The position numbers were made by a program, and so were the translations under genes. Below the pieces are notes generated by a model. That model saw only the letters and a list, made by a program, of their open reading frames with translations. It did no database searches and had not been told where the DNA came from. 64,000 nt of DNA from a virus: the IMG/VR virus record IMGVR_UViG_3300035145_002886; one strand, written 5' to 3'. The first letter of the stretch is position 1. The number at the start of each line of letters is the position of its first letter. Positions 8,329 through 14,007 of the stretch are shown here, in pieces.

Positions 8329-9594
8329 TTATATATCTTTCTTATCTAAAAACTGAGAGAATGTAAGAAGATTAGCCTCATCAATAGGACTCTCTTGTGT
8401 TTTTAATTTTTGATGGTTCAAATACGTCTTAAAGGGCATTACGCTCGATTCGTTGCTCTTTAACATAACGATTGCCTCAATTTTATCGACAATTGCATTA
8501 ATCTGCTCCATTAAGTCAGCATTTATAATATCGGTCTCTTTTGCTCTTCTCTTTCTAAATGAGCCAATTGCAATTTTGTATAGTTCTGAAAGAACTTTAT
8601 TGTTTACATATTCAATTGTCTTTTCATTCTTAATGAACTTAGTATTCAATTCAAATTCAGGGCGATCACTAAAATCCGCAGAGTCAAAACTAACACCAAC
8701 GTATTTTGCTGCATTCTCATTAACATATGCGTTAAATGCATTTGAAACTAGTTCAATGTATCTCTCATCTGCCTGATCCGATTCAAGTTGAATATTATCG
8801 ACATCGTATTCAGAAAAGAACTCAACTAGATCTAATAGTGAAATTTGATACGTGTCGCTTGGCTTTCTAGCCTCGCTAATCTCAGTTCCTGTTCCGCTAA
8901 GTTTAAAGTTTTTTACTGTTTTGCCGTCAAAGAAATTAATAACTAAAGAGTCGATATCTCCATCAAGGTCTTCATTAAGGGCTGTCTTACTTAACGTATT
9001 GTTAAAAATGTTATATGCTCTTCTAGTAAAACTTAACGACTCATACGCTCTATTTCTTTCAGCATCATTCATTTCTAATAGTTTTACCAACTCATCCTTC
9101 TGATGAGAACTCAATACTCCTTTAAAAACAACTTGTGGTCTTTGAACATCTAATTTATCTGCCCATTCAAAAAGAACTTTTGGATCTCTAATAACCTTCT
9201 TTATCAGTGTATTATCCATAGGGTTCATTACTTGAATATGGGTTAAAATAAGTCCATTCTTTGGAGTCTGATCATATTTAATATCTATTGTTTGACTGTC
9301 TGTCATATAGTCAAACCCAAACTTCCAGTCAAGTGGCATTTCATCTTTTGTTACGTCGTCGATTGATTCAAAAAATTTAATTGCATTTTCGTAATATTTA
9401 ACGATAGTGCGATCTACTTTATCTAGTGGTTTCTTTTTACCACTCTTAAAATAGGTGTAACCAACTGAATTGTTTTGAACGTGAAATGAAGATGCCTGTA
9501 CTTTTTCAGTAACAACGCATGGAGATTTTAGCATCTCTATAAAATCTTCTCTATTCGTTGATTCAAAATATGTATGTAAGCTTTGTAGTGCCAT
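8329..9594 (-). CDS. Putative degenerate ATP-dependent ligase-fold protein
   Basis: VVTEKVQASSF sits where motif I (EKxDG) would be; IDSLVINF and NFKL are spaced like motifs IV and V. Family call is tentative. Confidence 0.45.
   Translation of the reverse strand: MALQSLHTYFESTNREDFIEMLKSPCVVTEKVQASSFHVQNNSVGYTYFKSGKKKPLDKVDRTIVKYYENAIKFFESIDDVTKDEMPLDWKFGFDYMTDSQTIDIKYDQTPKNGLILTHIQVMNPMDNTLIKKVIRDPKVLFEWADKLDVQRPQVVFKGVLSSHQKDELVKLLEMNDAERNRAYESLSFTRRAYNIFNNTLSKTALNEDLDGDIDSLVINFFDGKTVKNFKLSGTGTEISEARKPSDTYQISLLDLVEFFSEYDVDNIQLESDQADERYIELVSNAFNAYVNENAAKYVGVSFDSADFSDRPEFELNTKFIKNEKTIEYVNNKVLSELYKIAIGSFRKRRAKETDIINADLMEQINAIVDKIEAIVMLKSNESSVMPFKTYLNHQKLKTQESPIDEANLLTFSQFLDKKDI
8330..8337 (-). 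promoter_or_regulatory. GATATATA motif overlapping the upstream stop codon
   Basis: GAT ATA TAA ends 8329-9594 and precedes 5775-8306. Confidence 0.55.
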
Positions 9595-9601
9595 AGTTTT
9601 A

Positions 9602-10486
9602 TTATTTAGCGATGTCTTCTGGTATTGGCAGACCCGACATTCCTAGTTTAACTTCAAATTCTTTAAAGATCTCGTCTCTCTTCTCAGGAAACTTAAACAT
9701 TGATGAGTTAATTAAATCTCTTAAACTTTCATAAGTCATCAAGTCTTTTACTTTTGCACCTTTAAAAAGAAGGTCTGCAATCTCTTCCGGTAGTCTTGTA
9801 ATCTCATAATCAAATTCTTTTAGTAATTTTGCATTTTTAACTAAACCTCGTTTTCCAACAAATGATTTGCGAACTCTAACGACTCCTTGGTTTAATCTAA
9901 TAACAAATGCTTCGTATTCTTTTGTTTGTCCCTCTTCGGTTTGATCTAAGATTTCAACAAATGATTTACCAATTGCTGACATTAAAAGGATATTTCTGTA
10001 TGCACCTTTATATTTTGACTCGTCTTTCGTAAAATCTGGAGAATGGTACATAAATCTACTCCAATTAATATCTCTTGATAACATTAAATCTACTTGACCT
10101 ACTCCATTATTTGCTTTACCTTCAATAGGAGCTGCAATTGATACCTGTTGGAATCCCACAGCCATTGAGGTGTCTAACCCCTTTCCTTTTAATAAATCAT
10201 TCATATCAAAAAGAACTTTACCAAGTGAAGTATTTAAGTGTCCTGCGATCTTATCGGCTGAAACTGCAATATCAATATCTCCACTAGTCTCTCCTGGATT
10301 CTTTTTTCCAGCACTACCAATAACTGCAGCATCTTCTCCAATGCCATCGATTCCAAGATGAGGGAATACATTTTTCTCAATCCATTCTAAAGTAGCTGCA
10401 ACCTCATGTTGCTCAAATGGTCTTGACTGTGCAATTGCGTTTCCGCTTTCACCTATAAACTGTTCAAATAATTTAACGTATCTCAT
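9602..10486 (-). CDS. Pol-beta-superfamily nucleotidyltransferase with capsid-targeting-like leader
   Basis: IGSAGKK...SGDIDIAV (GS + DxD), third Asp in GQVDLM; leader MRYVKLFEQFIGE. Confidence 0.7.
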   Translation of the reverse strand: MRYVKLFEQFIGESGNAIAQSRPFEQHEVAATLEWIEKNVFPHLGIDGIGEDAAVIGSAGKKNPGETSGDIDIAVSADKIAGHLNTSLGKVLFDMNDLLKGKGLDTSMAVGFQQVSIAAPIEGKANNGVGQVDLMLSRDINWSRFMYHSPDFTKDESKYKGAYRNILLMSAIGKSFVEILDQTEEGQTKEYEAFVIRLNQGVVRVRKSFVGKRGLVKNAKLLKEFDYEITRLPEEIADLLFKGAKVKDLMTYESLRDLINSSMFKFPEKRDEIFKEFEVKLGMSGLPIPEDIAK

Positions 10487-10495
10487 ATCTGTTTT

Positions 10496-10858
10496 TTATC
10501 TATTTGTCTTCTTATATAGAAGTTCTTGATCTTGTAAGAATCTTTTTAATGCAGGAATTACTTCATCCTCAGAAGTGATTTCAATACCCCAATTATCACT
10601 ACCAAAAATCTCACCATTTCTACAAATTTTAATATATCCGTAATCGGCGCGGACTGACAATTTATCGCGGGTTATAACACCATCCTCGTTGCTTGGTAAT
10701 ATTCCCTCTTTTTCAATAGTTGCAGGATATCCAGCCTTTTTAAGAATTTTGGTTATTTTTTTTAGGTTTAATTTTACACCAGTATTTCTTCCTATCTCTG
10801 TTACATTAAATTGATAGCGCTCGCTTGTAAATTGTTCAAATAATTTAACGTGTCTCAT
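10496..10858 (-). CDS. Small protein with capsid-targeting-like leader
   Basis: MRHVKLFEQFTSE; cargo not recognised. Confidence 0.7.
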   Translation of the reverse strand: MRHVKLFEQFTSERYQFNVTEIGRNTGVKLNLKKITKILKKAGYPATIEKEGILPSNEDGVITRDKLSVRADYGYIKICRNGEIFGSDNWGIEITSEDEVIPALKRFLQDQELLYKKTNR

Positions 10859-12436: not shown

Positions 12437-12467
12437 TTTTAGTGTTTTCTTTATAGCTATTGCAAGT

Positions 12468-12707
12468 TTAGGGTTTTTCAGTTTGCCATCTTTGAAAAAA
12501 GTCGTTTGCGGCTCTTGGACGACCTAATGTAACTTCAACTTCTTCGCCATCTTTAGCTTTTGCAAATAACTCTTGGTATGAACCATAGTTTTTGAAGTCT
12601 GTGACAGTGAACTCTTTTTTGTCTTCTTTGCGATATATCTGAGTGCCTACCCATCCTCCATCAGATCTTTCATTTACGAATTGTTCGAATAGTTTAATAT
12701 GCTTCAT
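12468..12707 (-). CDS. Small protein with capsid-targeting-like leader
   Basis: MKHIKLFEQFVNE. Confidence 0.7.
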   Translation of the reverse strand: MKHIKLFEQFVNERSDGGWVGTQIYRKEDKKEFTVTDFKNYGSYQELFAKAKDGEEVEVTLGRPRAANDFFQRWQTEKP

Positions 12708-12717
12708 TTTTAGTGTT

Positions 12718-14007
12718 TTATTTTTTGTATGCTAAGATACTTCTAATTTGGTGGATTGGTGCAAAAATACCGGTGTACTTATAGACTTTACCTTTATAAA
12801 CAAATGTAATACCTTCAGTTGGTACAATATTTTCTAGTCCACCGACTGCCGCAACTCTTGTTAGCTCATGTTCAAGCTTCTCAACATCAGTAGCGTCTCC
12901 ATTTTTTCTAATAGTATTAATAGTTGTTTCAATCTCTTTACGCATTTGCTCTCCAGCATGTGTTGGATTTGCCGATAAGAAAGCCTCCATATGCATCATC
13001 ATTTCGGTACCAACTTCTAGGAAAAGATTTTCAAGAGGTGCGTATATCTGCTTCTTAATCATCTTAGCGTTCTTTTTCTCAAAATCACTATATTCTTTTG
13101 TTAAATCAGGACCCATGTCCTTTTTCATTTTAGCAACGCTATATGACTTGTTAATTCCTCCAAGTCGGTTAGCAATTCCTTCGATTGACTCTTCTGGAAT
13201 ATTCATGTTTAACTCTCTAACAACATTGATCGCTCTACCAACAACAAAATCATGCACTGTTGAATTTAGGTTAATACCTGCATCCTTCATGATTTCGTTT
13301 AGTTTCTTATTATAATATTGTGCTCTTGATTTAGTGTTCTTAAATGGTCTAACAGGAATGTCCTGTGGTCCACGAACGTAAAACATCTCCTGAGCGGCTG
13401 CATTTGCATCTGCAATCATTTTACCAAGATCACGGCCAGCCTGTTTGTCTTCACCGACTACATTTCCATCAACATCATATTCTACAATACCGTGAAATAC
13501 TAATAGGTCTTGTCCGTAAGGAACCGTGTTTTGAGTTACTGGCGTCATAATTTCAACGCTTGCAAATTTTGTACCTTCGCCAAACATCTTTTCCTTATCG
13601 CCAGGAGAAAGAGCTCCAATTGAAGCGCTCAAATCACGCATTGCTGCGTTATATGCTATTTCAATATCTCCTCTGTCTTTAAACTTTGCGGCAAGATCTG
13701 CAGAGGTCATTGCATTTTCACCAGCATTCTTAAGATGACTCTTATTTCTTGCGGCAATTAGTTGACCATTCTTCCATGAAATTGAAAGCTGCTGTCCGTC
13801 AGTTTTTTCTTGGACAAAGTTTTCAGGGCCAAATGCTCCTTGAACCGTAGCGTCAATCATATCCTTTACATCCGTCATTGTTAGACCTAGGTCCTCAAAT
13901 GGATGCGTAAGATGCCCATAGGCTCCACCTTCATTAACAGATTCGAGCCCAGTATCCCTGAGCTCTTTTTCTGTTAAAAATTCTTCGTATGTAAATAACT
14001 TATTCAT
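12718..14007 (-). CDS. ATP-dependent RNA/DNA-ligase-fold nucleotidyltransferase with capsid-targeting-like leader
   Basis: Motif I QEKTDG, III VEI, IIIa VFHG, IV TEGITF, V YKYTG; leader MNKLFTYEEFLTE...VNE. Confidence 0.7.
   Translation of the reverse strand: MNKLFTYEEFLTEKELRDTGLESVNEGGAYGHLTHPFEDLGLTMTDVKDMIDATVQGAFGPENFVQEKTDGQQLSISWKNGQLIAARNKSHLKNAGENAMTSADLAAKFKDRGDIEIAYNAAMRDLSASIGALSPGDKEKMFGEGTKFASVEIMTPVTQNTVPYGQDLLVFHGIVEYDVDGNVVGEDKQAGRDLGKMIADANAAAQEMFYVRGPQDIPVRPFKNTKSRAQYYNKKLNEIMKDAGINLNSTVHDFVVGRAINVVRELNMNIPEESIEGIANRLGGINKSYSVAKMKKDMGPDLTKEYSDFEKKNAKMIKKQIYAPLENLFLEVGTEMMMHMEAFLSANPTHAGEQMRKEIETTINTIRKNGDATDVEKLEHELTRVAAVGGLENIVPTEGITFVYKGKVYKYTGIFAPIHQIRSILAYKK

Follow-up and report, generated by a model that had tools for sequence, protein, structure and literature searches.

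A putative capsid-delivered polynucleotide end-processing module in a large T4-related aquatic phage

Tagged head cargo of the T4 type and phage RNA-repair modules are both already known. The internal proteins of T4 are diverse defence proteins that have only a capsid-targeting tag in common (PMC3012670). The capsid-targeting sequence (CTS) of T4 is MKTYQEFIAE (PMC8442874), and prohead proteases of the T4 family cleave after Glu (PMC5694885). Phage RNA repair, in turn, has been described as a 'syntax' in which a ligase and a nucleotidyltransferase are combined with a phosphatase or a kinase (PMC7824862). Here we analyse a 64,000-nucleotide stretch of phage DNA (the window) from IMG/VR record IMGVR_UViG_3300035145_002886, in which four neighbouring genes encode two proteins assigned to the ligase fold, one of them probable, a nucleotidyltransferase with the HIGH motif (the HIGH enzyme) and a PolX-like nucleotidyltransferase. 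The window comprises bases 60343-124342 of a 166.6-kb contig that is estimated to be 59% complete, and nearly all of its genes are on the minus strand. In our judgement the chances are about even that these four genes make up a conserved module for processing polynucleotide ends, shared by a clade of large aquatic phages related to T4 and delivered in the capsid. We found no description, in the literature searched, of the two ligase-fold families, of the repeated fusion of the HIGH enzyme, of its PolX-like partner or of the capsid tagging of such enzymes.

The four-enzyme set lies at 8329-14007, all on the minus strand, and its open reading frames (ORFs) are those given by the original prediction, which was made from the sequence alone:

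12718..14007, minus strand: 429-residue ligase-fold protein (covalent nucleotidyltransferase), assigned from motifs I-V and an AlphaFold (AF2) model
10858..11454, minus strand: 198-residue HIGH-motif nucleotidyltransferase, resembling nicotinamide mononucleotide (NMN) adenylyltransferases (NMNAT-like), with leader MKHIKLFEQFINE; PF01467
9602..10486, minus strand: 294-residue nucleotidyltransferase of the Pol-beta superfamily, with leader MRYVKLFEQFIGE, assigned from GS/DxD/D and an AF2 model
8329..9594, minus strand: 421-residue probable ligase-like protein whose motif I (EKxQAS) is non-canonical, assigned from language-model features and motif reading

That prediction had read ligase, HxGH and Pol-beta motifs in these genes and seen in them a cluster of three unrelated nucleotidyl-transfer folds. 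The motifs were confirmed, as their key residues are invariant in homologues or the PF01467 model is passed, and Pfam, Foldseek and structure comparison agree on three unrelated folds.

Gene fusions are the strongest evidence that these enzymes are functionally linked. Most relatives of the 421-residue protein have the form of a ~613-residue fusion in which a 421-like domain is followed by a HIGH domain. In Microcystis phage Mel-JY01 and in LR756508, the HIGH domain is instead followed by a 429-like domain, and a clade of T4-like contigs encodes a ~1214-residue fusion of an AAA_33/zeta-type P-loop kinase, a HIGH domain and a 429-like domain. The gene of this last fusion directly adjoins those of the large terminase (TerL), the portal and the S77 protease. 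Furthermore, the BFVD and AFDB databases contain 'cytidyltransferase-like' proteins of 825-1062 residues with the same ligase fold, one of them from cyanophage S-PM2, and the N-terminal ~430 residues of the AFDB proteins so named align to the model of the 429-residue protein. In all, the HIGH-ligase pairing is fused in at least four architectures, and it extends over hundreds of metagenomic proteins. Because the HIGH enzyme is joined to ligase-fold partners in several domain arrangements, it is the hub of the system.

Co-occurrence and synteny across phages, which had been proposed as a check, were found in addition to these differently built fusions. The order UvsW-736-429-198-294-421-843-DUF3008-HAD, where numbers are protein lengths, recurs in loci L003-L040, whose 429-like proteins are 57-93% identical, and in the distant 462-kb phage LR756500 the 429-like, 421-like and 198-like genes are adjacent.

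The 429-residue protein has motifs I (EKTDGQ), III (FASVEI), IIIa (LVFHG), IV (EGITF) and V (KGKVYK; KGKxYK in the family). Across 27 homologues with 61-85% identity, residues K68, D70, G71, E152, H172, E398, G399 and K410 never vary, and for K407 conservation is at least 90%. The family is unannotated and includes 396 proteins at E ≤ 0.001 among 8,000 candidates scored; the 120 of these that were listed are all at least 60% identical. The AF2 model (mean predicted local distance difference test score, pLDDT, of 81.8) has ligases exclusively among its top structural matches (at least 35). The best of them are the RNA ligases NgrRnl, the Trl1 ligase domain, REL1, T4 Rnl1 and Rnl2, with Z of 7.2-8.4 and ~185 residues aligned, whereas DNA ligases score lower (Z of 5-6.8); AsfvLIG is among the weaker matches. 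In BFVD and AFDB, the model matches cytidyltransferase-fused proteins and RNA ligases, and the AFDB matches include ligase-like domains of calcineurin-phosphoesterase (Pnkp-like) proteins. A helical insert of ~170 residues is located between motifs IIIa and IV, and the model shows no OB-fold domain after motif V, a mark of the DNA-ligase and capping-enzyme branch, as the chain stops one helix later. The protein has no sequence or profile match in Pfam (including PF01068, PF09414 and PF09511), PHROG, NCBIfam or the PDB. It therefore represents a new family inside the ligase superfamily, separate from the Rnl1, Rnl2 and DNA-ligase families. The phage also encodes a canonical ATP-dependent DNA ligase (PF01068 with the OB domain PF14743, DNA_ligase_OB_2) at L087:2718-4010 in the contig (G000). 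The ligase-fold proteins of the module are therefore additional to that enzyme, and the 429-residue protein can be ruled out as the replicative DNA ligase of the phage.

Among described systems, T4 Rnl1 with Pnkp, fungal Trl1 and bacterial Pnkp/Hen1 resemble this arrangement in several respects. They have in common with it an RNA-ligase-type fold with motifs I-V, as in the 429-residue protein, and, as in Pnkp and Trl1, the relatives show a kinase-X-ligase architecture; an RNA-repair-type HAD is encoded nearby, and a nucleotidyltransferase partner fits the repair syntax. However, the 429-residue protein lies outside PF09511, PF09414 and PF01068 and has a helical insert of its own, a HIGH nucleotidyltransferase stands where those systems have a phosphoesterase, the Pol-beta enzyme differs from RlaP (PF10127), and this phage has a canonical Rnl1-type set as well. 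One survey of polyvalent proteins that are injected reported no case in which their 2H phosphoesterase domains occurred together with RNA ligases (PMC5512222).

The 198-residue protein contains the motifs GRFQPFHNGH (HxGH) and SGTKTR (SGTxxR). It passes PF01467 with 32.3 bits against a cut-off of 21 (E 1.3e-7), and it matches phrog_395 and phrog_3041, which are labelled 'cytidyltransferase'. Its first sequence match in the PDB is MJ0541 (1f9a_A, E 0.0014), which we take to be an NMNAT; it is followed mostly by phosphopantetheine adenylyltransferases, with NMNATs further down. The nearest named NCBIfam models are NMN adenylyltransferases, far below their cut-offs: the equivalog thresholds of the NadM, NadR and archaeal models (127-181 bits) are not reached by the 198-residue protein (21.9-27.2 bits) or by the fused form (35-37 bits). 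The protein is NMNAT-like by motif only. It aligns to the C-terminal domain of the 613-residue fusions with 29% identity (E 2e-17). A complex prediction of the 421-residue protein with residues 14-198 of the HIGH enzyme (score 0.02) gave no answer and counts neither way.

The Pol-beta-type enzyme of 294 residues carries GSAGKK, GDIDIAV and GQVDLM, in which G57, S58, D70, D72 and D133 are invariant in 26 homologues. Its AF2 model has a pLDDT of 73, with a thumb region (residues 178-228) below 50. With E values of 2e-4 to 1e-3 and probabilities of 0.97-1.0, Foldseek matches this model to Pol beta, lambda and mu, TdT and Cid1. VIA-align matches it best to African swine fever virus (ASFV) PolX (Z of 8.8 over 152/178 residues) and scores TUT7 at Z of 8.4, and the top match in AFDB is a 'polymerase nucleotidyl transferase domain' protein (E 9.5e-12). 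A sequence and profile search of the PDB with this protein returned nothing useful. As far as the model can be trusted, the protein resembles a minimal PolX composed of palm and thumb. The likeness extends to the minimal viral base-excision repair pair of ASFV, PolX and ligase: ASFV PolX is the best match and likewise has palm and thumb only, and a ligase is encoded in the same genome. However, the identity is only 9-12%, the thumb of our model is of low confidence, and terminal uridylyltransferases are nearly as good. The 294-residue enzyme may have the same kind of genomic role as RlaP, but it belongs to a different family by sequence, with no match to PF10127 in Pfam at E up to 0.1. CD-NTases (cGAS/DncV-like) are absent from the top PDB rows for the model, and a 2'-5'-oligoadenylate synthase-like entry comes only at rank 18 in AFDB. 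We reject a cGAS-like signalling role, as the model is nearest to PolX, TdT and terminal uridylyltransferases. Of the two roles originally put forward for the cluster, nucleic-acid end repair fits best, while nucleotide signalling is not supported, there being no CD-NTase among the best matches.

The 421-residue protein had been described as degenerate ligase-like. Its family has an invariant TEK(I/V)QASSFH, in which the lysine is kept and Ala replaces the Gly of KxxG, and 92 of the 100 ESM-Atlas clusters nearest to the protein carry RNA_ligase PF09414 (score 0.93-0.96). These two properties speak for the description; a comparison of the 421 and 429 families with hhalign, which found no relation, speaks against it. 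A Pfam scan of 25 family members detected the fused HIGH domain only. We consider the protein probably ligase-like. The family numbers 431 cluster representatives, the majority of which include a fused HIGH nucleotidyltransferase. Domain counts were taken from 150 of the 431: among these, a HIGH domain is present in 62, 32 are longer than 700 residues, and the longest has 1288. The C-terminal extensions of the longest 421-HIGH fusions (400-650 residues) have no match in Pfam, the PDB or the Atlas or within the genome.

A further feature of these genes is the leader, a 13-residue N-terminal peptide found on the 429-, 198- and 294-residue proteins. In its typical form, MKHIKLFEQFINE, it ends in Glu, and the 429-residue protein has a variant, MNKLFTYEEFLTE. 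Eleven genes begin with M(K/R)(H/Y)(I/V)K(L/I)FExFxxE, and ~30 have looser versions. The core of the motif occurs within the first 22 residues of 18/192 genes and in 0.75% of internal windows, which is a ~12-fold enrichment at the N-terminus. Among the strict copies, 36.6% of the codon pairs that encode the same residue differ synonymously, and the surrounding DNA is not conserved (42% identity upstream and 31% downstream). The leader is conserved as a peptide and not as DNA, and these two measurements rule out a DNA repeat or recombination scar. Orthologues of all three proteins in relatives that are 45-95% identical have kept the leader, and Lak-phage homologues of the 294-residue protein align only from residue 14, immediately after it. 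Members of the 429 family carry a second (L/V/I)xE site, almost invariant, that directly precedes a conserved GGAYGH, and this site is retained inside the fusions. The weak leader that had been ascribed to the 421-residue protein did not stand, as MALQSLHTYFES is the conserved N-terminus of its family; the leaders of the other three proteins did. Instead, a leader-like peptide, (L/M)TF(D/N/S)(Q/E)F(I/L/V), is found at the C-terminus in 118/248 members of the 421 family (background 1%), in both the 420- and the 615-residue forms and never in forms longer than 700 residues. In the phage itself it is the tail LTFSQFL at ~8344-8364.

The leader compares closely with the T4 tag (FEQFINE here, YQEFIAE in T4), and the phage has a T4-type head module consisting of Portal_T4, a 134-residue protein, a 642-residue S77 protease-scaffold protein and the gp23 major capsid protein; one tagged gene lies between portal and protease. 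The expectation of a T4-CTS-like tag in a phage with T4-type head genes was borne out. From the sequence we infer that the leader is a capsid-targeting sequence of the T4 kind, which would be packaged and cleaved. [quoted passage not shown] Unlike in T4, ~30 putative cargo proteins, known here from their genes alone, would include ligase-fold, HIGH and PolX-like enzymes, and one family (421) has the peptide at the C-terminus. To our knowledge, no enzyme of these three kinds is known as head cargo of T4.

Indirect support for packaging comes by analogy with two cyanophages. The 'cytidylyltransferase' gp140 of S-SZBM1 was the one enzyme detected by liquid chromatography-mass spectrometry in CsCl-purified virions (PMC9146016), and the cytidylyltransferase ORF154 of S-CREM2 is likewise associated with virions (PMC10665884). 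The papers guess a function in cell-wall synthesis (PMC9146016, PMC10665884). S-SZBM1 gp140 corresponds to the core of phrog_395 (E 6e-90), which the 198-residue protein and all fused HIGH domains also match, and its N-terminus, MRFRQFIIEA, is T4-CTS-like. This cyanophage cytidylyltransferase family (phrog_395) matches 563 phage genome records. The cyanophage enzyme thus shares with the 198-residue protein a PHROG, detection of the family in virions, a CTS-like N-terminus and a neighbour or fusion partner with a KWDG motif (DUF6267). It differs in that the identity is only ~25%, in its greater length (362 residues) and in that DUF6267 has no significant sequence match to the 421 or 429 families. 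The neighbour of gp140 (gp140-gp141, L090:6390-8671) is gp141, a DUF6267 protein (E 3.7e-130) in which KWDG and EGFV can be recognised by eye, and phrog_455 covers DUF6267 together with a cytidyltransferase. This suggests that DUF6267 may be a third ligase-like partner family. No relation between cyanophage DUF6267 and either the 421 or the 429 family was detected by hhalign, BLASTP of the 429-residue protein against DUF6267 was also negative, and a sequence and profile search of the PDB with DUF6267 gave nothing useful.

We favour the following mechanism. The leader would direct the proteins into the prohead core, where the S77 prohead protease would remove it after its final Glu. The enzymes would enter the cell alongside the DNA and be at work before phage gene expression begins. 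Such pre-packaging would be sensible if host nucleases halt translation too early for repair enzymes to be synthesised. The 429-residue protein would be active as a ligase-type enzyme, sealing breaks in nucleic acid by way of a Lys-AMP intermediate, and the PolX-like enzyme would add missing nucleotides at 3' ends. The HIGH enzyme, whose usual fused partner would be the 421-residue protein with its altered motif I, would act directly with the ligase-fold proteins; the simplest chemical links between them may be supply or recycling of NAD+, or making or reversing a 5'-adenylylated end. Break repair is our preferred role because a ligase fold, a Pol-beta 3'-extender, a SAK-type HAD and, in relatives, a kinase fit the phage RNA-repair syntax as well as Pnkp and Trl1. 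RNA is favoured over DNA as the substrate, for example tRNA cut by host nucleases. The phage encodes 25 tRNA genes in a block to the left of the window (L087:5875-11014 in G000; ARAGORN), which we count as repair context for RNA.

A more specific proposal, which we offer tentatively and rate well short of even, is that the NMNAT-like HIGH enzyme is the obligate partner of two undescribed ligase-fold families in a virion-delivered ligation pathway. It may make or reverse an adenylylated intermediate (NAD+ or a 5'-adenylylated end) for the ligase-like protein with the altered motif. Abundant aquatic phages related to T4 would then have this pathway as a core trait, and the 'cytidylyltransferase' of cyanophage virions would be part of it.

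Several points weigh against a packaged RNA-repair module. For the clade of this phage, packaging and the roles of the enzymes rest on sequence, models and analogy. A structural Z of about 8 is middling by the structure tool's own notes, and the ligase assignment of the 421-residue protein comes from language-model features and motif reading only. A cargo made up of ~30 different tagged proteins would be large. Between relatives, the 429-residue protein is more conserved than the UvsW helicase, with for example 65% against 45% identity in L010; such conservation appears unusual for injected counter-defence cargo and argues against a mere accessory role of that kind, so that the counter-defence part of the original prediction is called into question. 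The module is sited among T4-type replication genes (gp32, UvsW and a split family-B polymerase), namely between gp32/UvsW and the DNA polymerase, and by its model the PolX-like fold is nearest to a DNA-repair enzyme, ASFV PolX. Finally, a second, canonical RNA-repair set lies beyond the right end of the window at L088:5075-14912 (G000 129374-139211) and consists of a DUF2828/DUF7788 protein, a HAD_PNKP phosphatase, a T4 Rnl1-type RNA ligase (PF09511) and an AAA_33 kinase. Since the genome already holds these canonical repair genes and a DNA ligase, another repair set needs a distinct reason.

Some of these points would be explained if the same enzymes acted on DNA, as packaged or early enzymes of nick, gap and end repair that mend or join the incoming genome or repair damage by host nucleases or glycosylases. 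The match of the 294-residue model to a minimal DNA-repair polymerase over nearly the whole chain, the position of the module, the existence of a canonical RNA-repair set elsewhere and the high conservation of the 429-residue protein, which fits core genome maintenance, all agree with this. DNA single-strand-break repair, too, is composed of a kinase, a phosphatase, PolX and a ligase. Nevertheless, we regard action on DNA as unlikely: the 429-residue model is nearer to RNA ligases than to DNA ligases and is without an OB domain, the phage already has a DNA ligase with such a domain, the Atlas clusters nearest to the 421-residue protein carry RNA_ligase, the adjacent HAD is of the RNA-repair 'SAK' type, and terminal uridylyltransferases nearly equal PolX in score.

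The leader itself might be an interaction or localisation peptide, for instance for the replisome or another hub protein, and the enzymes cytoplasmic during replication. The replication setting would suit this, ~30 tagged proteins are many for capsid cargo, and the 421 family has a peptide of the same kind at the C-terminus, a frequent site of clamp-binding-type motifs; moreover, we infer packaging in this clade from sequence. This explanation is nonetheless improbable in view of the close similarity of the leader, with its terminal Glu, to the experimentally defined T4 capsid-targeting sequence, the T4-type head genes, S77 protease among them, with a tagged gene lying between those of portal and protease, the homologous cytidylyltransferases in cyanophage virions, and the fused enzyme that distant relatives encode beside TerL, portal and protease. 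Very unlikely, in our view, is a cofactor system in which the HIGH enzyme, joined in some relatives by a kinase, rebuilds NAD+ by NadR/NadM-type salvage against NAD+-depleting defences, and the ligase-fold proteins are users of NAD+ rather than repair ligases. It would account for NMN adenylyltransferases being the best partial NCBIfam matches of the HIGH domain, for the agreement of GRFQPFHxGH with the top PDB hit MJ0541 (1f9a_A) and for the kinase and HIGH domains of the 1214-residue relative, and fusions of phage NMNATs with P-loop kinases or Nudix domains have been described (PMC7824862). However, all NMNAT models stay far below their cut-offs (21.9-36.9 bits against 127-181), Pfam scans show no Nampt or Nudix partner in the cluster, and the repeated fusion to ligase-fold proteins and the co-occurrence of the PolX-like enzyme point to polynucleotide chemistry.

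In databases, the HIGH-ligase pair is labelled just "cytidyltransferase-like". If it is a true repair pair, it would be a new way of coupling a Rossmann-type adenylyltransferase to ligation, and it would explain why cytidylyltransferases are present in cyanophage virions. Enzymes that mend RNA or DNA would then form a new class of head cargo beside the anti-restriction internal proteins and Alt of T4, delivered just when tRNA-cutting or nicking defences would otherwise keep repair enzymes from being synthesised. The leader would provide a testable and portable loading tag for a second phage lineage, and new enzymes for molecular biology may come from the two ligase families.

The module is interspersed with and flanked by further genes:

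14008..16218, minus strand: 736-residue leader-like protein (MAGLHSFQDFTKARE), upstream flank of the module, syntenic in relatives
11457..12707, minus strand: four small leader-bearing ORFs (123, 106, 84 and 79 residues), each beginning with MKHIK(L/I)FE(Q/D/K)F(I/L/V)NE
10496..10858, minus strand: 120-residue leader-bearing protein (MRHVKLFEQFTSE), between the PolX-like and HIGH enzymes
5775..8306, minus strand: 843-residue leader-like protein (MNFQDFLNE), downstream flank of the module, syntenic in relatives
4203..4898, minus strand: HAD phosphatase of the 'Swiss-army-knife RNA repair' type (PF18143 HAD_SAK_2, E 6e-22)

Residues 79-194 of the 736-residue protein match phrog_1987, and the two flanking proteins have in common a ~35-residue module, GNxFGAARAKAIADGExEFxVDGExxKV. 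The HAD_SAK_2 phosphatase is 3.4 kb from the four-gene module and syntenic in close relatives. The four small ORFs vary between relatives, and the 120-residue protein is kept in close relatives only (~61%); neither it nor any of the four has a family match in Pfam or PHROG. A DNA search of the region against a phage collection returned only a chance-level match of 104 bp, in a Lak phage, and comparison of the module at the DNA and protein levels found no close cultured relative in this collection. Also of note is that the ARAGORN output for the tRNA block lacks none of the 20 common amino acids. The ORF at 4910-5773 has a DUF3008 N-terminus (PF11450), and its internal Met at 5452 begins a typical leader, MKHLKNFESFLNE, so that it may be two genes or a fusion. 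Lastly, four ORFs start alike (MKIFKPRFFSLGFFVYIS...), at ~4830-4898 in the window and at G000 ~22440-22510, 134400-134473 and 147030-147096. To judge by sequence, these starts point to a repeated DNA element, possibly a promoter, located upstream of the true starts.

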